Source of the DNA: Novosphingobium sp.
GTDB lineage: Bacteria > Pseudomonadota > Alphaproteobacteria > Sphingomonadales > Sphingomonadaceae
Direction of reading: 5' to 3'
Assembly (NCBI RefSeq): GCF_025351285.1
Contig: NZ_JANXWG010000139.1
Location: 1,549 to 65,548 of the forward strand
DNA length: 64,000 nucleotides
This document shows, piece after piece, positions 2,421 through 18,000 of this stretch. The translations under genes and the position numbers were made by a program. How positions within the stretch are numbered: the first letter of the stretch is position 1; the number at the start of each line of letters is the position of its first letter. The notes under the pieces were generated by a model. The model worked only from the letters and a program-made list of their open reading frames with translations, had not been told where the DNA came from and made no database searches.

Positions 2421-4034
2421 TTGGACGCCACGGCCGCATCGCATTCGGCGAAACCAGCAGCAGAACCGACGCACCACGATCTCAAGCTGATTGTCACGGT
2501 TTCGACGCTGGGCACGGTGTTCGAATGGTACGATTTCTACATCTACGCCACGCTGGCGCCGCTGTTCGCCAAGCTGTTTTTCCCCGGCAGCAGCCCCACC
2601 GCCGGGCTGTTGCTGGCGCTGGCCACCTTCGGCATCGGCTTTGCCGCGCGGCCGGTCGGCGGTGCGATCTTCGGCGCATTGGGTGATCGGATCGGGCGCA
2701 AGGTCAGCTTCCTCGTCACGATCACCATGATGGGGCTGGCCACCACCGCAATCGGCTTGATCGGCACGTATGCGCAGATCGGCATTGCCGCGCCGATCCT
2801 GCTGGTGCTGCTGCGCACCATTCAGGGGCTGGCGGTGGGCGGCCAGTACAGCGGTGCGGCGGTCTATGTGGCCGAACACGCCCCCACGCATCGGCGCGGC
2901 TTCACCACCGGCTTCCTGCAAACCGGGCCGGGGTTCGGCTTCATGTTGAGCATGCTCGCGGTGCTTGTCACCAGCGGATTGACCGGCGAGGAAGCGTGGG
3001 TTGCCTGGGGCTGGCGCATTCCGTTCATCCTCAGCCTGGGGCTGCTGGCGATCTCGATCTGGATGCGGCTGATGCTGTCGGAAAGCCCGGTGTTCGCGGC
3101 GATGGCCCAGGCCGGCGCCACCGCGCGGCACCCGTTGCGCGAAGCTTTCGCCACGCGCGCGCGTGTCGGTCGGGTGGTTGCGGCGATGATCGGCATTGCG
3201 GTCGGCCAGTCGGTGGCGGGCTATGTCGGCCTGATCCAGGCCATGAACTTCCTGACGACCGCCGTGCATATGGAGCCGTTCTCGATGCGGGTGATCCTGA
3301 TCGCATCGCTGGCGTTCGGCGGCGTGGCATCGTGGGCCGGGGGCTGGCTGTCGGATATCATCGGGCGCAAGCGCACTGCGGTGGCAGGCTACATCCTGTT
3401 CCTGGTGATCCTGTTCCCGCTGTTCACCACGCTGGGCAAAATGGCCAATCCTGGCCTCGCCGACGCGGTGCGCGCGGCGCCGGTGGTGGTGACGGGCAGC
3501 GATTGCCGCTTCAATCCGTTCACGCAGAAGCCCCAGCCCACCGCGTGCGGGCGCCTGCTCGATACGCTGACCAAGGCCGGCGCGCCTTACGCCAAACACA
3601 AAGCGGCGGCAGGCAGCGCACCGGTGCTGACCGTGGGCGGCGTGCGGGTTGCGCCCGACGACAAGCCCGCGATCACCGCCGCTCTGGCCAAGGCCGGCTA
3701 CACCACCCCGCCCGCACGGCCCGAGGCGGGCACCCTGCTGGCGATGCTGGCGCTGCTGTGCCTGTTGGGTGTTTCGACCGGGCTCGCCTATGGCCCGGTG
3801 GGCGCGTGGATGACCGAACTGTTCCCCGCGCGCACCCGCTATTCGTCGTTCGCGATCAGCTACAACTTCGGCGTAGGGATCTTCGCGGGGTTCATGCCGT
3901 TCATCGTCCAGACCATCGTGGCGCTGACCGGCAATCCGCTGGCGGGGCTGTGGTATCCGTTCACGATGGTAGCGATCGGCCTGACGGTGGCGGTGGTGTT
4001 CCTGCCCGAGACGCGCGGCAAACCGATCGATTAG
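2421..4034 (+). CDS. MFS metabolite:H+ symporter (MHS family)
   Basis: RBS GGGAGG then TTG at 2421. Motifs LGTVFEWYDFYIY, GDRIGRK, R..QGLAVGGQY.GA..YVAEHAP and ELFPARTRYS..; an extra Cys-containing loop lies in the C-terminal half. Confidence 0.9.
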   Translation: MDATAASHSAKPAAEPTHHDLKLIVTVSTLGTVFEWYDFYIYATLAPLFAKLFFPGSSPTAGLLLALATFGIGFAARPVGGAIFGALGDRIGRKVSFLVTITMMGLATTAIGLIGTYAQIGIAAPILLVLLRTIQGLAVGGQYSGAAVYVAEHAPTHRRGFTTGFLQTGPGFGFMLSMLAVLVTSGLTGEEAWVAWGWRIPFILSLGLLAISIWMRLMLSESPVFAAMAQAGATARHPLREAFATRARVGRVVAAMIGIAVGQSVAGYVGLIQAMNFLTTAVHMEPFSMRVILIASLAFGGVASWAGGWLSDIIGRKRTAVAGYILFLVILFPLFTTLGKMANPGLADAVRAAPVVVTGSDCRFNPFTQKPQPTACGRLLDTLTKAGAPYAKHKAAAGSAPVLTVGGVRVAPDDKPAITAALAKAGYTTPPARPEAGTLLAMLALLCLLGVSTGLAYGPVGAWMTELFPARTRYSSFAISYNFGVGIFAGFMPFIVQTIVALTGNPLAGLWYPFTMVAIGLTVAVVFLPETRGKPID

Positions 4035-5250: not shown

Positions 5251-8046
5251 ATGACCAAATTCGGATTCCACGCTGCCGGCGTTTCTGCCACGGCACTGCT
5301 TGTCGCACTCTCGACGCCCGCCTTGGCCCAGGATGCGGCGCCTGCTGCTCCCCAGGCCGATGCCGCAGCGGCCACAAACGAAATTCAGGATAGCGGCGCG
5401 CAGATTGTCGTCACGGCGCAAGGCCGCTCGCAGACCCTGGCCAGTGTACCGGTTGCGATTTCGGCGATCAGTTCCGAGACGCTCAAGAACAGCGGCGCGG
5501 TCGATATCCGCCAGCTCAACCAACTCGCCCCGTCGCTGCTCGTGTCGTCCACCGGCAGCGAAGCCAACGGTTCGGCACGCATTCGCGGCATCGGCACGGT
5601 CGGAGACAACCCCGGCCTCGAAAGCTCGGTGCCGGTATTCATCGACGGCGTCTATCGTTCGCGTTCGGGCATCGGGCTCAACGAACTGGGCGAGATCGAA
5701 CGGATCGAAGTCCAGCGCGGTCCGCAGGGCACATTGGGCGGACGCAATTCGTCGGCCGGCCTGATCAGCATCTATTCGAAGAAGCCTTCGTTCAACTTCG
5801 GCGCCACCGGCGAAGCAACGTACGGCAATTACAACTACGCCCGCGTTGCCGGTTCGGTAACCGGCCCCATCAGCGAAACGGTCGCTGCCCGCCTCGATGG
5901 CGTTTATGTCCGCCGCGACGGCTTCCTCAAGGACGTGACCAACAATATCGACGTCAACAACCGCGATCGCTTCTTCCTGCGCGGGCAGTTGCTGTTCCAA
6001 CCGAGCAGCGATTTTTCGGTGCGGCTGATCGGTGATTACACCTATCGCAACGAACGTTGCTGCGGCGCCAGCTATGTCGATGCCAGCGTCAATCCCTACA
6101 TCGGCAACCTCAACAACGCGTCGACCCCGCTTTCCCCGTTGCAGACCAACGGCAACAACATCATCAACGTGCTGCGCGATCTCGGCCAGCCGGTCGCTTC
6201 GTTCAACCAGGGCTACAGCCGCAATATCGATGTCTCGCCCGGTCGCAGCTTTGCCGGCAAGACCAAGGATTACGGCGCATCGGCCGAGATCAACTGGAAC
6301 CTCGGCGGCGCCAAGCTGACCTCGATCACGGCCTACCGTGAATACCGTTCGGGCCAGGGATCGGACACCGACTATGGCGCGGTCGATCTCCTTTACCGCG
6401 CGCCAAGTGCTGCGGCCTATCGCCAGTTCCACACGTTTACGCAGGAACTGCGGCTTCAAGGCAAGCTGTTCAACGACAAGCTGGACTGGTTGGTCGGCGG
6501 CTTCTACGCCAATGAAAAGTTGACCGCGACCGACAATCTGCGCTTCGGCAAGCAATACGGCCGCTTCGCCACCTGCCGCATCATCTCGGGCGGTGGCCTG
6601 GCCGGACTCTACTCGCCCACCAGCCCGTCATGTGTTGCTCCGGGCGTTGGACCGGCCACGCTGGCCGGCGCAACCGGCGCTTCCGGCCCCGACATCGTGG
6701 CAGCTTTCGCTGCGCTCGACGGGATCAGCGACAAGGGCTCGACGATCGATCGCTACTTCCAGGAAGACAACAACTTCGCGATCTTCACGCACAATATCGT
6801 GCACCTGACCGACAAGCTCGACTTGACGCTGGGCGGCCGCTACACCTTCGACAAGAAGAAGCTGAGCGCAACTTTCGGCAACGACAACACCGCCTGCACG
6901 ACGATCCAGGGCCTCGTGACCGACGATCTGGCGACGGGCAACGCCACCGCCCGCGCGCTCGCCGGCGCGCTGATCGGCCTCGGCTGCCAGGGCAACTCGA
7001 CCGCGGAACTGAACGGCGTTTCGATCAGTTCGTCGAAACCCCGCGAGCAGCGCTTCACCGGCACCGCGATCCTGTCATACAAGATCACCCCGCGGCTGCT
7101 GACGTACGCCAGCTTCTCGCGCGGCTACAAGGCGGGCGGGTTCAACCTCGATCGCTCGGCGCTGAAGCCACCCATCTTCGTGATTGGTGGCGTTCCGACG
7201 TCGACCTTTGCGGCGGCGGGCGGTGCGCAAGCGCTCGTCGGCAATCTCCAGTTCGATCCCGAACAGGTCAACGCTTACGAAATCGGCGCCAAGTACGCGT
7301 CGGGCCCGTTCAGCCTTTCGGCCACCGTGTTCCGCTCGGACTTCACCAACTTCCAGCTCAACACCTTCAACGGCTCGGTCTTCCTGGTGCAGACCATCAA
7401 CGGCTGCAAGACCAGCCTGGCCGGAGCCGATCGCGATCTCAGCGCGGCAACCGGCGCCTGTCCGGCCGGCCAGACCGGCTATGGCGTGCGCACCCAAGGG
7501 TTCGAGCTGGAATCGGTGCTGGCCCCCGCGCCCAACTTCCACGTGACCGCTGGCCTGACGTATGCCAGCACCAAGTACCGCAACGATCTGGTCGGCAACA
7601 AATCGGGCGCGCCGCTCGATCCGGCGCTGCGCCTGCTGCCCGGTTCCAACCTGTCGAACGCACCAAAGTACACGGTGACCGGCAGCGCTGCGTGGACCCC
7701 CGAGATCGGCACCAGCGGCTATTCGCTGCTGTTCTATGTCGATACCCGGTTGGTCAGCGACTACAACACCGGGTCTGACTTGTTCCCGCAGAAGGGCCAG
7801 GACAGCTTCGCGTTGATGAATGGCCGCGTCGGCCTGCGTGGCCCCAACGATCGCTTCGCGATCGAGATCTGGGCGCAGAACGTGTTCAACAAGCAGTACG
7901 CGCAAGTGGCGTTCAACTCGCCGTTCCAGGCCGGCACCACTTCGGCGCCGTTCGTCGATCCGCAGTACCCGGGTGGCCGCCAGATCTTCTCGCAGTTCCT
8001 GGCCGAACCCCGCACCTTCGGCGTGACCGTGCGCGGCAAGTTCTGA
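5251..8046 (+). CDS. TonB-dependent outer-membrane receptor
   Basis: Signal peptide (..ALA-QD), TonB-box-like IVVTAQGR, plug motifs (IRGIG, VPVFIDGVY, IERIEVQRGPQGTLGGRNSSAGLISI) and C-terminal PRTFGVTVRGKF ending in Phe. Confidence 0.95.
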   Translation: MTKFGFHAAGVSATALLVALSTPALAQDAAPAAPQADAAAATNEIQDSGAQIVVTAQGRSQTLASVPVAISAISSETLKNSGAVDIRQLNQLAPSLLVSSTGSEANGSARIRGIGTVGDNPGLESSVPVFIDGVYRSRSGIGLNELGEIERIEVQRGPQGTLGGRNSSAGLISIYSKKPSFNFGATGEATYGNYNYARVAGSVTGPISETVAARLDGVYVRRDGFLKDVTNNIDVNNRDRFFLRGQLLFQPSSDFSVRLIGDYTYRNERCCGASYVDASVNPYIGNLNNASTPLSPLQTNGNNIINVLRDLGQPVASFNQGYSRNIDVSPGRSFAGKTKDYGASAEINWNLGGAKLTSITAYREYRSGQGSDTDYGAVDLLYRAPSAAAYRQFHTFTQELRLQGKLFNDKLDWLVGGFYANEKLTATDNLRFGKQYGRFATCRIISGGGLAGLYSPTSPSCVAPGVGPATLAGATGASGPDIVAAFAALDGISDKGSTIDRYFQEDNNFAIFTHNIVHLTDKLDLTLGGRYTFDKKKLSATFGNDNTACTTIQGLVTDDLATGNATARALAGALIGLGCQGNSTAELNGVSISSSKPREQRFTGTAILSYKITPRLLTYASFSRGYKAGGFNLDRSALKPPIFVIGGVPTSTFAAAGGAQALVGNLQFDPEQVNAYEIGAKYASGPFSLSATVFRSDFTNFQLNTFNGSVFLVQTINGCKTSLAGADRDLSAATGACPAGQTGYGVRTQGFELESVLAPAPNFHVTAGLTYASTKYRNDLVGNKSGAPLDPALRLLPGSNLSNAPKYTVTGSAAWTPEIGTSGYSLLFYVDTRLVSDYNTGSDLFPQKGQDSFALMNGRVGLRGPNDRFAIEIWAQNVFNKQYAQVAFNSPFQAGTTSAPFVDPQYPGGRQIFSQFLAEPRTFGVTVRGKF

Positions 8047-9210: not shown

Positions 9211-10459
<1,249 letters not shown>

Positions 10460-10463
<4 letters not shown>

Positions 10464-11506
10464 GCGGCTCCGCCTTGCACTTGCTTGCTGTCGCGGATCG
10501 CGCGGTCGATGGCCTGGCGAGCGCGTACGCCGCCTTCGTCGATCCGGTACGCCGAGAGTTTAAGGTCGGGATTGGCGGCGATCGAACGTTGCTGCGCTTC
10601 GAGCACGGCCACGTCCTCGATGAACACGCCGCTTTGCTGGTGCTTGAAGCGCGCGGTGAAGCCCGGGTCCTGCACCTGGAAATTGCGCGCCATGCCCCAG
10701 AAGTAATGGTGGCTGGTCGCGCGCTCGGGCGTCATCACATCGATCACCATCCCGCGCACGCCCTGGTCATGACGTTCGAGCGTCGCCCCCGCGCCGACCG
10801 GCGCCACGCCGACATCGATCATCACCGCCGACGGCAGCATGAACCGGCAGATCTGCCAGCGATCGACGAGCCCCTCCTGCCCCAACGCGCCGCGCCAGAA
10901 CGGTGGTGCATCGATCCCGGGCATCCAGCGCCGAACCAGAACTTCGTCGTTCTCGACCACGGTCTCGATCGGCGCTTCCATCAATTCGGGCTGGCCGATC
11001 GAGCCGGTATGGACATAGGTTTCGTGCGTCAGGTCCATCAGGTTGTCGATCATCAGCCGGTAATCGCACGCAACCGGATAATAGCCGCCGTCGAAGGCCC
11101 AGTCGGGGCTCGAACAGGGCCACAAGTCGGGGATCAGCGCCGGATCGGCCAGCGCTGCTTCGCCCACCCACACCCACACGAAGCGATGCCGCTCGTGCGT
11201 GACATACGTCTCGGCGCAGACCTTGCGGTTCACCGGATCGGTGCGGATCGGCATTTCCTGCGCCACGCCATCGGGGCCGAGCTTGAGCCCGTGGTACTTG
11301 CAGCGGATCGAATCGCCTTCGCGCAGCCCCAGCGAAAGCGGCAGCATGCGGTGCGGGCAGGCATCGCGCATCGCCACCACGCCGCGATCGAGCTTGCGGT
11401 AGAACAGCATCGGCACGCCGCAGATCGTCCGCGCAAGCGGCTTGGAATCGACTTCGGCATCCCACCCCGCGACATACCAGGCGTTGGTGAGCCAGATCTC
11501 GCTCAT
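10460..11506 (-). CDS. vanA: Rieske non-heme iron O-demethylase oxygenase subunit (vanillate O-demethylase type)
   Basis: Start MSEIWLTNAWYVAG at 11506; Rieske CPHR...CKYHG; mononuclear site CDYRLMIDNLMDLTHETYVH; APPFW, VDRWQICRF, YFWGMARNF. Confidence 0.88.
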
Positions 11507-12528
11507 AGCCCGTGCGCCTTGAGCTTGGCATCGAGCCGCGGGAACACCCGGCGGGCATTGCCCTCGAAAATCGCGTGGCGCTGATCGTCTGCCACGTCGA
11601 GCGCGTCGACATAACGCTTGGTGTCGTCGAAATAGTGCCCGGTCAGCGGATCGATCCCGCGGACCGCACCGACCATCTCGCTGCCGAACAGGATGTTCTT
11701 GCTCTCGATCACTTTGGCCAGAAGGTCCACGCCGGGCTGGTGATAGACGCAAGTATCGAAATAGACGTTGTTCATCACGTGCCCGGCCAGATCGGGCTTC
11801 TTGAGCATGTCAGCCAGCCCGCGATAGCGGCCCCAATGATAGGGCACCGCGCCGCCGCCGTGCGGGATGATGAAGCGCAGGTTGGGGAAGCGCGCGAACA
11901 AATCGCCCTCGATCAGTTGCATGAACGCGATCGTGTCGGCGGCGATGTAGAAGCTGCCGGTGGCGTGGAGCGCGGCGTTGCAACTGCCCGAAACGTGGAT
12001 CATCGCGGGCACGTCGAGCTCGCACATCGCCTCGTACATGGGGAACCAGTAAGGATCGGTCAGCGCCGGATGGTTGAAGTGACCGCCGCCCGGGTCCGGG
12101 TTGAGGTTGCAGCCGATGAAGCCGAGTTGCTCAACACAGCGGCGCAGTTCCTTGATCGAGGCGGACAAATCCGCCGCCGGCGATTGCGGCAGCATGCACA
12201 CCCCGGTGAAGGTCTTGGGGAACAGACCGACCACGCGCGCAATCAAGTCGTTGCAAGCAATCGACCACGCCTCGCTCACCTGCTGATCGCCGACATGGTG
12301 CGCCATTGCCGAAGCGCGTGGGCTGAAGATCGTGTGATCCGCGGCGCGCTCACGGATCAGCTTGAGCTGGTTCTGCTCGATCGTCTCGCGGATCTGGTCG
12401 TCCGAAATCGCGGGATACGCGGGCGCCGCCTGGCCCGCCTTGAACGCGGCTTTTTGCACCTCGCGCCAGGCGTTGTGGGGTTCGGGCGCGGTGGTGTAGT
12501 GGCCGTGGCAATCGATCACGAGGGTCAT
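11503..12528 (-). CDS. ligJ: 4-oxalomesaconate hydratase (amidohydrolase superfamily)
   Basis: IDCHGHYTT, IFSPRASAMAHH.GD, VCMLPQSP, GFIGCNLNPDPGGGHF, HGGGAVPYHWGRYRGLA, FDTCVYHQPG, FGSEMVGAVRGIDP.TGHYFDDTKRY. Confidence 0.95.
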   Translation of the reverse strand: MTLVIDCHGHYTTAPEPHNAWREVQKAAFKAGQAAPAYPAISDDQIRETIEQNQLKLIRERAADHTIFSPRASAMAHHVGDQQVSEAWSIACNDLIARVVGLFPKTFTGVCMLPQSPAADLSASIKELRRCVEQLGFIGCNLNPDPGGGHFNHPALTDPYWFPMYEAMCELDVPAMIHVSGSCNAALHATGSFYIAADTIAFMQLIEGDLFARFPNLRFIIPHGGGAVPYHWGRYRGLADMLKKPDLAGHVMNNVYFDTCVYHQPGVDLLAKVIESKNILFGSEMVGAVRGIDPLTGHYFDDTKRYVDALDVADDQRHAIFEGNARRVFPRLDAKLKAHGL

Positions 12529-13361
12529 GCCGCATCGCTCCTTGTTTCTTGCCGCGGTTGTGGCGCCAGGTGCTGGCGTTGCCCGGCCATCGCCGCCTGC
12601 CGCGCGACAGTGCCACGCGTCATCACCGGATCTACCCCGAGTGCCGCCAGCGTCTTGGCCGACTCTTCCATCTCGGCCGCGCGCCGCACGCCGTGAGTGA
12701 CCATGCGTTCGAGGTTGTAGTCCGCGCGGTTCTGCCAGCTTCGCGCCTTTTCACTGGCATCGAGCGAAGCCAGCACCTCGTCCTCAACGCCCGCCGCGCG
12801 TGCCGCCAGCATCATCTCGGCGGTCAGTGCCTCGATCCCCTTGACCATCACCGAGCGGATCATCTTGATCGCGCTGGCCCGGCCGACTTCGTTGCCGACT
12901 ACGCGGGTGTCGGTGAAGCCCGCCGCGCGCAAGAGCGCCTCGCCTTGATCCGACGCCGGGCCTGCAATCAACAACGGCACCTTGAGTCGGGCCGGATGGA
13001 CCGGCGCCAGCACCGCCACATCGACATAGCGCCCGCCCGCCGCCTCGATCGCCTGGGAAGCCGCGCGCTTGGTTTCGGGCGCGACCGAGTTCATGTCGCA
13101 CCACACCGCACCGGTTTTGAGCAAAGACCCATAGTCCTGCGCCGCCGAAAGAGCGGCGTCCGCCGTTACCAATGAAAGCACCAGGTCGGCCCCGGCCAAC
13201 GCTCCGGCCGCATCGCCCGCCATAGTCACGCCCGCGACTGCCATCGCGGCGCAGCGCTGCGGGAGAATGTCCCACCCGCGCGCCTGTCCGCCCCAATCCG
13301 CCGCAGCGGCGAAAGTCGATCCGGCCTCTCCGAAACCGATCAGGGCGATCTTGAAATCCAT
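12525..13361 (-). CDS. NAD(P)-dependent oxidoreductase (6PGD/3-hydroxyisobutyrate dehydrogenase-like, DUF1932-type C-terminus)
   Basis: Start MDFKIALIGFGEAGSTF (Rossmann fold); DMNSVAPETK, YVDVAVLAPV, G.ASAIKMIRSVMVKGIEAL, HGVRRAAEMEE. Its stop overlaps the ligJ start. Confidence 0.85.
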   Translation of the reverse strand: MDFKIALIGFGEAGSTFAAAADWGGQARGWDILPQRCAAMAVAGVTMAGDAAGALAGADLVLSLVTADAALSAAQDYGSLLKTGAVWCDMNSVAPETKRAASQAIEAAGGRYVDVAVLAPVHPARLKVPLLIAGPASDQGEALLRAAGFTDTRVVGNEVGRASAIKMIRSVMVKGIEALTAEMMLAARAAGVEDEVLASLDASEKARSWQNRADYNLERMVTHGVRRAAEMEESAKTLAALGVDPVMTRGTVARQAAMAGQRQHLAPQPRQETRSDAA

Positions 13362-13426
13362 CAACTGCCGTCCTGTCGTGACCGCTACCAGGGGGGAAAT
13401 GAATTGATCGGTCGAACCATAATTTT

Positions 13427-14587
13427 TCACGAAGTATTGGCTAGCGCACCGACTTCGCGCAGGATTTCCACAAAGCAGGCTTGTGGTGCGGTCGGCCGCC
13501 AGCCGGTGCGCGTGGTTATCCCGATCGTACGCGTGACCGGGACCGGCGTCGGCAGCACCACCAGCACCCCTGCCGCCAGCTCCACCGCGATCTGGTCGGG
13601 AGAAAGCAGCGTGAGCGCATCGCTTCCCAGCAGCAATTGCCGCACGGTCAGCACCGATCCGCATTCGATCCGGATCAGCGGCGGCACCGCGCCCGCCTCG
13701 ACCAGCATCGCCTCCCAATACCGCCGCAATGGAGTTTCGCGCGGCGGCAAAATCCAGTCGTGTGCGGCCAGCACTGCTCCCGTGGGTTGACCGACTGCGA
13801 CCAATGGATGTCCCGCACGTACGATCACTTGCGGCCGGTCGACGAACACCGGTTCCTGGACCAGGTCGTCCAGCCCGTTGGCATCACGCAATGCCCCCAG
13901 CATCAGGTCGATTTCGCCATCGCGCAGCGGCCCGGCCAGTTCGGCGTGGCTGCCTTCGACCACCACAATGTCCACTTCGGGAAACCGGGCCGAAAAGCGC
14001 AGGATCGCTTCGGGCAACCAGCGCGCGCGGCTAAGCGGCATCGCACCGACCACGATCCGTCCCGCAGCCTTGCCCTGCCACGCCGCCACTTCGGCGAGGC
14101 CGGCGCGCACTTCGGCCATCGCCAGCCCGAACCCGCGCGCACGGCGCTGCCCGGCGGGGGTCAGGATCACCTGGCGCCCGCGCCGTTCGACCAGCCGCGC
14201 ACCAAGCGCAAGCGACAGATCGGCGACCGCGCGATGGAGCGAGGCCGGCGCCAGCCCGGTCGCCTGCGCCGCGCCTGCGTAGCTGCCGCCCCGCGCCAGC
14301 GCCAGGAAGGCGCGCACTTGCGTGCCGGTCACGCGCGGGCTGCCGATTTGCGCAATCGCGGCTTCCACGCGCGGCGCCAGCAGCTGTGCGGGCGCGGTCG
14401 GCGTCATGCCCCCTGCGCCGCGTTCGAACAGCGCACAGCCCAGGTCCGCTTCCAGCCGCGCGATCGCCTGGGTCAATGCCGGCTGGGTCAGGTTGACGGC
14501 GCGCGCCGCGCGCGTGACAGTGCCATGGCGGACCGTGGCGGCAAGCGCGGCGAAGTGCCGGATGTTGGGAGCCTTGCCGTCGATCAT
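13427..14587 (-). CDS. ligR: LysR-type regulator with duplicated HTH (LigR-like)
   Basis: Two LysR HTH units ([25 protein letters not shown] and [24 protein letters not shown]) plus a substrate-binding domain; divergent from ligK. Confidence 0.9.
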
Positions 14588-14596
14588 GGCGTGATG

Positions 14597-14611
14597 TTAG
14601 CAAATTGTTAT
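14597..14611. promoter_or_regulatory. Candidate LysR (LigR) T-N11-A box in the ligR-ligK intergenic region
   Basis: TTAG-CAAATTG-TTAT. A similar box, ATAA-TTTTTCA-CGAA, lies at 13419-13433 upstream of the oxidoreductase-ligJ operon. Confidence 0.4.
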
Positions 14612-14710
14612 GTCATCCGCCAAGTTCGGATTGGCATTCCCGCGGTGCTGTCGCATGGATTTGCCGTACCACTACAACGCCACTGCGCCGCACCTGCAAC
14701 GGAGAGAACC

Positions 14711-15385
14711 ATGGCCGGAATCGTCGTCCAGAATATCGAGCGCGCCGATCCGGCGGTGATCGACGGGCTGGCCGAATGCGGCGTCGCCACCGTCCACGAA
14801 GCGCAAGGCCGCGCCGGGTTGCTGGCAAGCTATATGCGCCCGATCTACACCGGCGCGCGGATCGCGGGTTCGGCGCTGACGATCAGCGCACCGCCGGGCG
14901 ACAACTGGATGGTCCACGTCGCGATCGAGCAGTTGCAGGCGGGAGACATCCTGCTGCTCGCGCCGACCAGCCCGTGCGAGGATGGCTATTTTGGCGATCT
15001 GCTCGCCACTTCGGCGATCGCGCGCGGGTGCCGGGGACTGGTGATCGACGCGGGAGTGCGCGATGTGCGCGACCTGACGCAGATGGGTTTTCCGGTGTGG
15101 TCGAAGGCCGTCTTTGCGCAAGGCACGATCAAGGCCTCGCTGGGATCGGTCAACGTGCCGGTGGTCTGCGCAAGTGCGATGGTCAATCCGGGCGACGTGA
15201 TCGTGGCGGATGATGACGGGGTGTGCGTGGTGCCGCGCCTGAATGCCGCAAAGGTGTTGGAAGCGGCGCGGGCGCGTGAGGCCAACGAGGGCGACAAGCG
15301 CGACAAGCTGGCGGCCGGGGTGCTGGGGCTGGATATGTACAAAATGCGCGAGAAGTTGGCCGAGATGGGGCTGAAATATGTGTGA
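14711..15385 (+). CDS. ligK: 4-carboxy-4-hydroxy-2-oxoadipate aldolase / oxaloacetate decarboxylase
   Basis: RBS GGAGAG; [82 protein letters not shown]. Confidence 0.95.
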
Positions 15386-15394
15386 TCCCAAGGT

Positions 15395-15418
15395 CCCCCG
15401 CCCGCAAGCGGGAGGGGG
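15395..15418. repeat. Single REP-like hairpin between ligK and ligU
   Basis: CCCCCGCCCGC-AA-GCGGGAGGGGG, the same family as the 9098 and 22988 repeats. Confidence 0.8.
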
Positions 15419-15421
15419 CAA

Positions 15422-17367
<1,946 letters not shown>

Positions 17368-17439
17368 ATGTGGCAAGTCCGGTTGCTGCGGAGCCATGCT
17401 GCGCCTAAGATCGAGACTTCGCCTGGATTGGAGAGCCCC

Positions 17440-18000
17440 GTGGCCGCACCCCTTCGTCAGTCCGCCTTCTTCGCGGCGTTTCTTGCCGGCACCCTGCTGG
17501 TCCCGGCCGCCATCGATGCGCACGCCAACCGTCATGCCATCAAGACGCGCCCACCACTCGCCCGCGCAAAACTGATGCTTGCCGATGGCACGCCGGCAGG
17601 CACCGCCACCGTTCGCGTCTATCACGGTCGCGCGTCGCTTGTCCTTGCGTTGAGCAAGCTGCCAGCCGGCGTCCACGGCATTCACCTTCACGCGGTCGGC
17701 AAGTGCGATGCGCCCGATTTCAAGACCGCGGGCGGCCATCTCAACCCCGATATGCACCAGCACGGCACGCTCAACCCGATGGGCCACCATCTGGGAGACC
17801 TGGCCAACGTGACCGCGAACGCTTTGGGCAAGGTCGTCACCTCGATGCCGTTGGTCGGCGGCGAAGCGGCGGTGGCAGCCGCGATGTTCGATGCTGACGG
17901 CACCGCGCTGGTGATCCACGCCGCACCCGATGACTACAAGTCCGATCCCAGCGGCAACAGCGGCGCGCGCATCGCCTGCGGCGTGTTCGAACGACCCTGA
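17440..18000 (+). CDS. sodC: Periplasmic Cu/Zn superoxide dismutase
   Basis: Signal-like N-terminus (start uncertain; GTG 17440 used); GVHGIHLH..GKC, AGGHLNP, HG, HLGDLAN, ALVIHAAPDDYKSDPSGNSGARIACG. Confidence 0.92.
   Translation: MAAPLRQSAFFAAFLAGTLLVPAAIDAHANRHAIKTRPPLARAKLMLADGTPAGTATVRVYHGRASLVLALSKLPAGVHGIHLHAVGKCDAPDFKTAGGHLNPDMHQHGTLNPMGHHLGDLANVTANALGKVVTSMPLVGGEAAVAAAMFDADGTALVIHAAPDDYKSDPSGNSGARIACGVFERP

Follow-up and report, generated by a model that had tools for sequence, protein, structure and literature searches.

O-Demethylation limits the rate of microbial lignin conversion, for which sphingomonads are the main chassis. These bacteria are usually described as using the folate-dependent enzymes LigM and DesA, while Pseudomonas, Acinetobacter, and Comamonas possess VanAB, a two-component system of class IA. 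The LigM of Sphingobium sp. SYK-6 is regulated by DesR (PMC6888825), and there is genetic evidence for an O-demethylation role of a further enzyme, DmtS of Novosphingobium aromaticivorans (PMC8091115). In the latter species, the regulator LigR binds upstream of both ligK and SARO_RS14280 and activates both flanking units, its footprints sharing the motif TT-N-GC-N6-TTAT (PMC12710314). Here we describe a VanA-like Rieske monooxygenase (P0001) that is encoded between ligJ and ligA in a stretch of 64,000 nucleotides (nt) from a Novosphingobium sp. (contig NZ_JANXWG010000139.1, positions 1,549 to 65,548; referred to below as the window).

We consider it probable that P0001 is the oxygenase of an O2- and NADH (reduced nicotinamide adenine dinucleotide)-dependent vanillate demethylase, which is encoded in a LigR-controlled operon, belongs to a clade lacking the reductase VanB, is served by unlinked donors encoded on contigs C51 and C155 of the same genome, and stands in for LigM. 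The enzyme would most likely convert vanillate to protocatechuate and formaldehyde, with syringate or 3-O-methylgallate as possible further substrates. It would be translated from a LigR-controlled transcript spanning DUF1932-ligJ-vanA-ligA-ligB-ligC, so that the product of demethylation would be made alongside the dioxygenase that cleaves it. Electrons would most likely pass from the C51 flavin adenine dinucleotide (FAD) reductase through the C155 [2Fe-2S] ferredoxin and the Rieske cluster to the mononuclear iron, i.e., along a generalist, unlinked class-I chain.

A VanA-like clade at the ligJ/ligA junction

P0001 consists of a Rieske domain (PF00355, E 1.2e-13) and a VanA_C domain (PF19112, E 8.4e-48; its score of 163.5 bits exceeds the Pfam gathering threshold of 23.5, and the match spans 1-192 of the 193 profile positions). 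Among solved structures it is closest to DdmC, the oxygenase of dicamba demethylase (E 2.6e-53, residues 5-335 aligned with 4-333). The iron triad H161/H166/D298 aligns with H160/H165/D294 of DdmC; this triad is invariant in the alignment. The Rieske ligands C50-P-H52 and C69-K-Y-H72 (CXH...CXXH) are likewise conserved in both clades described below. Public homologues that are 73-96% identical are numerous in Novosphingobium, Sphingomonas, Sphingobium, Croceicoccus, Pelagerythrobacter, and other genera, and their names are generic or automatic throughout.

When species-representative genomes were scanned with P0001, 80 loci were obtained, 20 of them at 64-80% identity, followed by a gap and then by 60 at 47-52%. 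The high-identity group belongs to the Sphingomonadales with two exceptions (18/20), namely a metagenome-assembled genome (MAG) of the Acetobacteraceae and an unclassified alphaproteobacterial MAG. Members of Pseudomonas, Comamonadaceae, Oxalobacteraceae, Halomonas, Alteromonas, and further taxa make up the lower-identity group. In a maximum-likelihood tree (used unrooted only, its root on a very distant paralogue being unreliable), clade A, with 22 rows including P0001, is split from clade B, with 59 rows, by two long internal branches (0.68 and 1.08). P0001 thus falls outside the clade of the VanB-linked VanA proteins. Judged by its own clade and by its identity of about 50% to VanB-linked VanA, it is not an ordinary VanA. 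The same genome has a second, very divergent protein with Rieske and VanA_C domains (353 amino acids (aa); contig C87, L001:8785-9846, minus strand). Its gene cluster also encodes a GH1 glycosidase, an alpha/beta-hydrolase esterase, and a TonB-dependent receptor, and no reductase lies nearby; this paralogue could be a DmtS-like enzyme.

The vanA-like gene is tightly fitted between its neighbours, as its ATG (11506-11504) overlaps the ligJ TGA and its TGA (10462-10460) overlaps the ligA ATG, reading ATGA in both cases. An earlier note on this DNA, made from the letters of the window, had placed a VanA-like gene with these two overlaps inside a ligJ-ligAB unit, and renewed reading of the frames and domains proved its coordinates, overlaps, and identification correct. 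In N. aromaticivorans DSM 12444, the stop codon of the amidohydrolase gene Saro_2814 overlaps the ligA start with no gene in between (PMC8091115), and the extra vanA therefore occupies exactly that junction. The note further assumed that this particular strain had put the demethylase there, which is wrong. The order ligR-DUF1932-ligJ-vanA-ligA-ligB(-ligC), together with ligU, recurs in 14 of the 20 clade-A loci. The ATGA overlap is retained in 10 of 14 at the ligJ/vanA junction and in 11 of 13 at vanA/ligA. The Sphingomonadales were also sampled evenly, with 401 species genomes, and clade-A orthologues (identity of 66% or more) were present in 16 genomes of seven genus codes, the source genome included. 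In 10 of the 15 others, vanA lies on the strand of ligB and its end precedes ligB by 415-460 nt, which is the same layout, so that 11 of 16 genomes have it. At least seven Sphingomonadales genera show this layout. Isolates with this layout include N. flavum, S. glacialis, and S. abikonense.

Clade-A copies are also found outside lig operons, beside a MarR regulator and an MFS transporter in Sphingomonas soli, beside a MarR regulator in the Acetobacteraceae MAG, and beside an MFS transporter and an aldehyde dehydrogenase in N. beihaiensis; such contexts are typical of aromatic-acid catabolism. The ligJ-vanA-ligAB arrangement is an old operon design that has been repeatedly inherited or transferred. 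As to whether it is common and already described, a point on which the earlier note had made its proposal depend, the synteny survey finds it common, but no description of a ligJ-vanA-ligA arrangement was found in the searchable literature. An ISME J paper on a thermal swamp was considered as a prior description and set aside, since it concerns vanAB of Burkholderiales. We therefore regard the arrangement as a recurrent, apparently undescribed operon variant that is built on an uncharacterised VanB-less VanA clade. One Novosphingobium MAG with the ligJ-vanA-ligAB layout (L018) additionally carries a divergent ligA/ligB-like pair of 40-42% identity (2776-3947), which lies between its ligR and DUF1932 genes but on the other strand.

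Electron supply in the absence of VanB

A reference VanB was taken from a Pseudomonas mediterranea locus (L060). Behind the VanA gene of this locus (49% identity to P0001) comes that of a 316-aa protein with Fer2 and NAD_binding_1 domains, and a divergent GntR-type regulator (VanR) is encoded nearby. VanB stands immediately downstream of vanA in 42 of the 60 lower-identity loci (the 59 clade-B rows and the long-branch row L075). It is absent within 6 kb from all 20 clade-A loci. A clade-B subclade of Sphingomonadaceae (eight rows) is also without VanB. The window encodes no reductase and no ferredoxin, as the earlier note had observed, and the lack of VanB extends to the whole genome (4.08 Mb), where the best tblastn match of the reference VanB had an E value of 2.3 and NAD_binding_1 (PF00175) gave zero matches. 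All Fer2 matches of the genome lie on contigs other than that of the window (C21), on which the vanA-like gene itself is the sole Rieske match.

It could be argued that P0001 belongs to an ordinary two-component VanAB and that vanB is missing only because its part of this metagenome-derived genome was left unassembled or was binned wrongly. The sequencing runs listed for this DNA are sediment and rock metagenomes from a single study, none of them RNA. The assembly consists of 163 contigs and is apparently a sediment metagenome bin, which makes absences from this genome alone soft evidence, and three other clade-A genomes (G348, G326, and G376) do carry a VanB/PDR-like gene somewhere. The completeness of 99.66%, the failed genome-wide searches, and the difference in gene neighbourhood between the clades nevertheless make this explanation very improbable. 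Furthermore, VanB is missing from near-complete clade-A relatives as well, no VanB-like match at E 1e-15 being obtained in 12 of the 15 other clade-A genomes, including assemblies of only 2-7 contigs. With no VanB in the window or the genome, an unlinked electron donor must therefore serve P0001, which is in line with the earlier suggestion that its electrons come from a reductase elsewhere.

The sole ferredoxin reductase of the Reductase_C type in the genome (Pyr_redox_2 and Reductase_C domains) is encoded on contig C51, where its gene adjoins gdh. Two small Fer2 ferredoxins are encoded on contigs C155 and C83, neither within a catabolic cluster. Among solved structures, the C51 reductase scores highest against 3lxd (671 bits), with putidaredoxin reductase and BphA4 next, and the C155 ferredoxin scores highest against 3lxf (138 bits), with putidaredoxin next. 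The genome hence encodes both a FAD-containing ferredoxin reductase and a putidaredoxin-type [2Fe-2S] ferredoxin, the component types found in DdmABC. The names returned for the two structures were generic, and we take them to be ArR and Arx of N. aromaticivorans. In that species, several P450s are served by the class-I chain ArR-Arx (PMC13627977).

A precedent for such a partnership is found in two rows of the VanB-less clade-B subclade, from Sphingomonas sp. Leaf32 (L046, 5998-8581) and a Sphingomonas MAG (L036, 1352-3998), where a clade-B vanA is followed not by vanB but by genes for a 412-aa Pyr_redox_2 and Reductase_C reductase and a 103-aa Fer2 ferredoxin; 4-nt overlaps link all three genes in L046. 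Sphingomonads have therefore swapped VanB for a three-component chain at least once. The reductases of these two loci are 63-64% identical to that of C51, and the ferredoxins are 58-59% identical to that of C155. Although the C51 and C155 genes are unlinked to the P0001 gene, their homologues are thus linked to vanA in these loci. Moreover, DdmC shows the same kinetics with VanB as with DdmA/DdmB (PMC10249351), and donor swapping is therefore feasible in this enzyme group.

Two other potential indicators of the donor were examined and discarded. Orthologues of the C51 and C155 proteins occur in all 15 other clade-A genomes, but all 20 of the 20 controls likewise have the C51-type reductase, which renders its phylogenetic profile non-discriminating. 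The Rieske loops (DACPHRL versus DFCPHRGA) do not serve as a donor marker either, since the sphingomonad VanA proteins linked to a ferredoxin reductase and ferredoxin retain the loops of clade B.

That P0001 is the proposed demethylase but draws on another donor, such as the C83 ferredoxin, one of the candidate Rieske-type ferredoxins of C133 and C75, or a different flavoprotein, seems to us to have only a small chance of being correct. The genome offers room for it by encoding 17 Rieske proteins, two small Rieske open reading frames (ORFs), and the second Fer2 ferredoxin, and the profile of the C51 reductase is uninformative in this regard. However, there is a single reductase of the Reductase_C type to choose from, and the vanA-linked ferredoxins of L036 and L046 are only 34-37% identical to the C83 protein, which favours the C51-C155 pair.

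Relation to LigM and the likely substrate

A genome search for LigM and DesA, as suggested by the earlier note, found neither in the source genome. Six genes with a GCV_T domain are present. The three of candidate length best match GcvT, sarcosine oxidase, and dimethylglycine dehydrogenase, with no LigM match among them, and the open frames that hold the remaining three, at 875-959 aa, greatly exceed LigM in length. Eight genomes of the same genus without clade A each contain two further GCV_T genes of the LigM/DesA type, two of which were confirmed against the SYK-6 LigM structures (857 and 543 bits); the LigM confirmed in this way served as the survey query.

A LigM/DesA homologue is absent from 13 of the 16 clade-A genomes. 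The 401-genome sample contains 82 LigB-positive genomes, of which 48 possess a LigM/DesA-family gene (a true LigM in 40), 15 possess clade A, and eight possess a clade-B VanA. Clade A and a true LigM occur together in a single LigB-positive genome (Fisher p = 3e-4, which is descriptive only, since the genomes are related). This pattern is as expected for alternative ways of performing one step, and the near mutual exclusion fits a functional replacement of LigM, whose place P0001 would take in the clade-A genomes. Sixteen LigB-positive genomes have neither a LigM/DesA-family gene nor either VanA clade, and only three of these have a VanB/PDR-like gene.

With respect to the substrate, conservation of at least 90% within clade A as well as within clade B is seen at 117 positions, and at 102 of these the two clades have the same residue. 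Nine pocket positions were defined as the DdmC hot spots named in PMC10249351 and mapped through the DdmC alignment, and six of them are the same in both clades (R216, C220, I230, V232, V234, and D256). The residue pattern appears to fit the same substrate class as that of canonical VanA, although specificity may have shifted. The genome also encodes a glutathione-dependent formaldehyde dehydrogenase, which could handle the predicted formaldehyde by-product. P0001 as a 4-hydroxybenzoate hydroxylase is unlikely because a canonical pobA in the genome already covers that step.

Several observations nevertheless weigh against the proposed role. The equivalent of DdmC W285 is Gln290 in clade A and Gly in clade B, that of L282 is Phe287 in clade A and Ile in clade B, and the 240-253 loop (HDQGVRG in clade A, including positions 247 and 249) differs between the clades. 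At about 50% identity substrate specificity can shift, and no assay of any clade-A member was found in the literature. The linked reductase-ferredoxin example belongs to clade B and not to clade A, and the C51-type reductase is a core gene. The anti-correlation of clade A and LigM is uncorrected for phylogeny, and the one genome that combines them (G274) carries an intact clade-A vanA (a 344-aa ORF, which rules out a pseudogene) in addition to LigM. Finally, the second of the two LigR-type boxes in the window (Table 1) is mismatched, and the window as a whole contains no more motif matches than expected by chance.

The conserved pocket differences, together with the long branch separating clade A from VanB-linked VanA, lend some weight to the alternative that P0001 is an enzyme of the same type with another substrate. 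Syringate or 3-O-methylgallate would be candidates, as would isovanillate or veratrate or some other 4-carboxy aromatic bearing methoxy or methyl groups; LigAB would still accept the product, and vanillate would be handled otherwise or not at all. VanA, TsaM, and DdmC are known to be promiscuous (PMC10249351), and in a genome without DesA any use of syringate would need P0001. We consider this alternative unlikely, however, because most pocket and co-conserved positions match canonical VanA, and because the near mutual exclusion with LigM, a vanillate/3-O-methylgallate demethylase, fits functional replacement. In addition, a change from Gly to Gln would shrink the pocket rather than enlarge it for a second methoxy group.

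Extending the proposed vanillate demethylation by P0001 to the whole of clade A gives a broader picture, which we put forward tentatively and rate at slightly below an even chance. Clade A would then be a VanB-independent vanillate demethylase that displaces LigM in about one-fifth of the LigAB-bearing Sphingomonadales species, runs on a housekeeping reductase and ferredoxin resembling the P450-serving ArR/Arx, and travels as a one-gene cassette at the ATGA junction of ligJ and ligA.

The lig locus and its relation to known systems

The minus strand of the window carries ligR, a DUF1932 oxidoreductase gene, ligJ, the vanA-like gene, ligA, ligB, and ligC in this order (8.1-14.6 kb), and ligK, ligU, and ligI are encoded divergently on the plus strand (14672-17367). 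The regulator gene ligR is thus flanked by both units, DUF1932-ligJ-ligA-ligB-ligC and ligK-ligU-ligI, as is characteristic of a protocatechuate 4,5-cleavage cluster (Table 1). The DUF1932 stop and the ligJ start overlap by 4 nt, and ligA and ligB are separated by 2 nt. By position (sequences were not compared), the DUF1932 oxidoreductase is the counterpart of SARO_RS14280 (PMC12710314). A DUF1932/NAD_binding_2 gene heads the operon in every syntenic locus, with a 4-nt overlap coupling it to ligJ. The TonB-dependent receptor listed in Table 1 is a possible uptake component. A Cu/Zn superoxide dismutase gene (17368-18000, plus strand) begins one base past the ligI stop on the same strand.

Table 1. 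Genes and putative regulatory sites of the lig region, with window positions.
Feature	Position	Strand	Basis or remark
TonB-dependent receptor, convergent with ligC	5251..8046	+	domain match
ligC, GFO_IDH_MocA and OxRdtase_C dehydrogenase	8132..~9090 (start approximate)	-	Pfam, NCBIfam
ligB	9211..10050	-	Pfam; NCBIfam NF009903, 527 bits
ligA	10053..10463	-	Pfam; NCBIfam TIGR02792, 181.7 bits, exceeds cut-off
Clade-A VanA-like Rieske monooxygenase P0001, 348 aa	10460..11506	-	stop-free ORF; Rieske and VanA_C domains
ligJ, Amidohydro_2 hydratase	11503..12528	-	Pfam; 75-83% identity across syntenic loci
NAD_binding_2/DUF1932 oxidoreductase, first gene of the operon	12525..13361	-	domains; start codon read
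LigR-box-like motif, one mismatch	13419..13433	-	58-72 nt upstream of DUF1932 start codon
ligR, LysR-type regulator	13427..14587	-	domain matches
Putative LigR box, exact TT-N-GC-N6-TTAT	14597..14611	+	ligR-ligK spacer; only exact match in 64 kb
ligK, RraA-like aldolase	14672..15385	+	sequence match
ligU, PrpF-type tautomerase	15422..16474	+	domain match
ligI, Amidohydro_2 2-pyrone-4,6-dicarboxylate (PDC) hydrolase	16552..17367 (start approximate)	+	sequence match

The positions of the two LigR-type boxes match the LigR sites of N. aromaticivorans, which gives a positional hint to LigR control; to this extent the regulation proposed in the earlier note is supported. LigR has been reported to respond to protocatechuate and gallate; in the tentative broader picture given above, the demethylase would therefore be induced by its own product. 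The LigR ORF of the window (386 aa) shows two HTH_1 matches (residues 9-67 and ~90-150) before the LysR substrate domain (172-379). Its N-terminus is thus extended by a second helix-turn-helix-like segment, which a tandem duplication of the DNA does not explain.

If the proposed function is correct, a sizeable minority of sphingomonads would use an oxygenase instead of LigM, and the operon would represent a compact, naturally co-expressed route from vanillate to central metabolism. The one-carbon flux would be predicted to run through formaldehyde rather than methyl-tetrahydrofolate. Moreover, a concrete redox chain would be named that could explain other partner-less VanA-like enzymes such as DmtS.

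Compared with VanAB, P0001 shares the Rieske and VanA_C domains and the metal ligands, is 47-52% identical over the full length, and has most co-conserved and pocket positions in common. It differs in forming a separate, long-branch clade with no adjacent VanB and mostly none in the genome. Furthermore, its gene is not accompanied by a GntR-type VanR and lies inside a protocatechuate 4,5-cleavage operon instead of a vanAB(K)R locus. The three-component DdmABC (Protein Data Bank (PDB) 3GB4 and others for the alpha3-type oxygenase) uses a FAD reductase and a putidaredoxin-type ferredoxin, the donor type proposed for P0001. The dicamba-binding residues N230, H251, and W285 of DdmC are I, D, and Q in P0001, and a chlorinated ortho-methoxy substrate is thus not suggested.

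LigM of Sphingobium sp. SYK-6 and N. aromaticivorans performs the same step feeding LigAB and has a distribution nearly complementary to that of clade A. It is unrelated to P0001 in fold and chemistry, transferring the methyl group to tetrahydrofolate without O2 or NADH, and it is encoded outside the ligJABC operon and under separate regulation. DmtS (Saro_1872) is, like P0001, a VanA-like sphingomonad oxygenase with no VanB in its gene cluster, but it is only about 27% identical to VanA, versus about 50% for P0001, and its gene lies outside the lig operon.

Two known operons, the LigR-activated SARO_RS14280-ligJ-ligA-ligB-ligC in N. aromaticivorans and ligJABC in SYK-6, have the same gene order as the window, with a leading DUF1932 gene, a divergent ligKUI unit, and the TT-N-GC-N6-TTAT box; the window has one extra cistron at the ligJ/ligA junction, with ATGA kept on both sides. 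Finally, the vanA-reductase-ferredoxin sets of L046 and L036 encode a sphingomonad VanA without VanB, whose partners are homologues of the proteins encoded on C51 and C155. This VanA is a clade-B protein with linked donors, whereas the donors of P0001 are unlinked and its gene is placed inside the lig operon.

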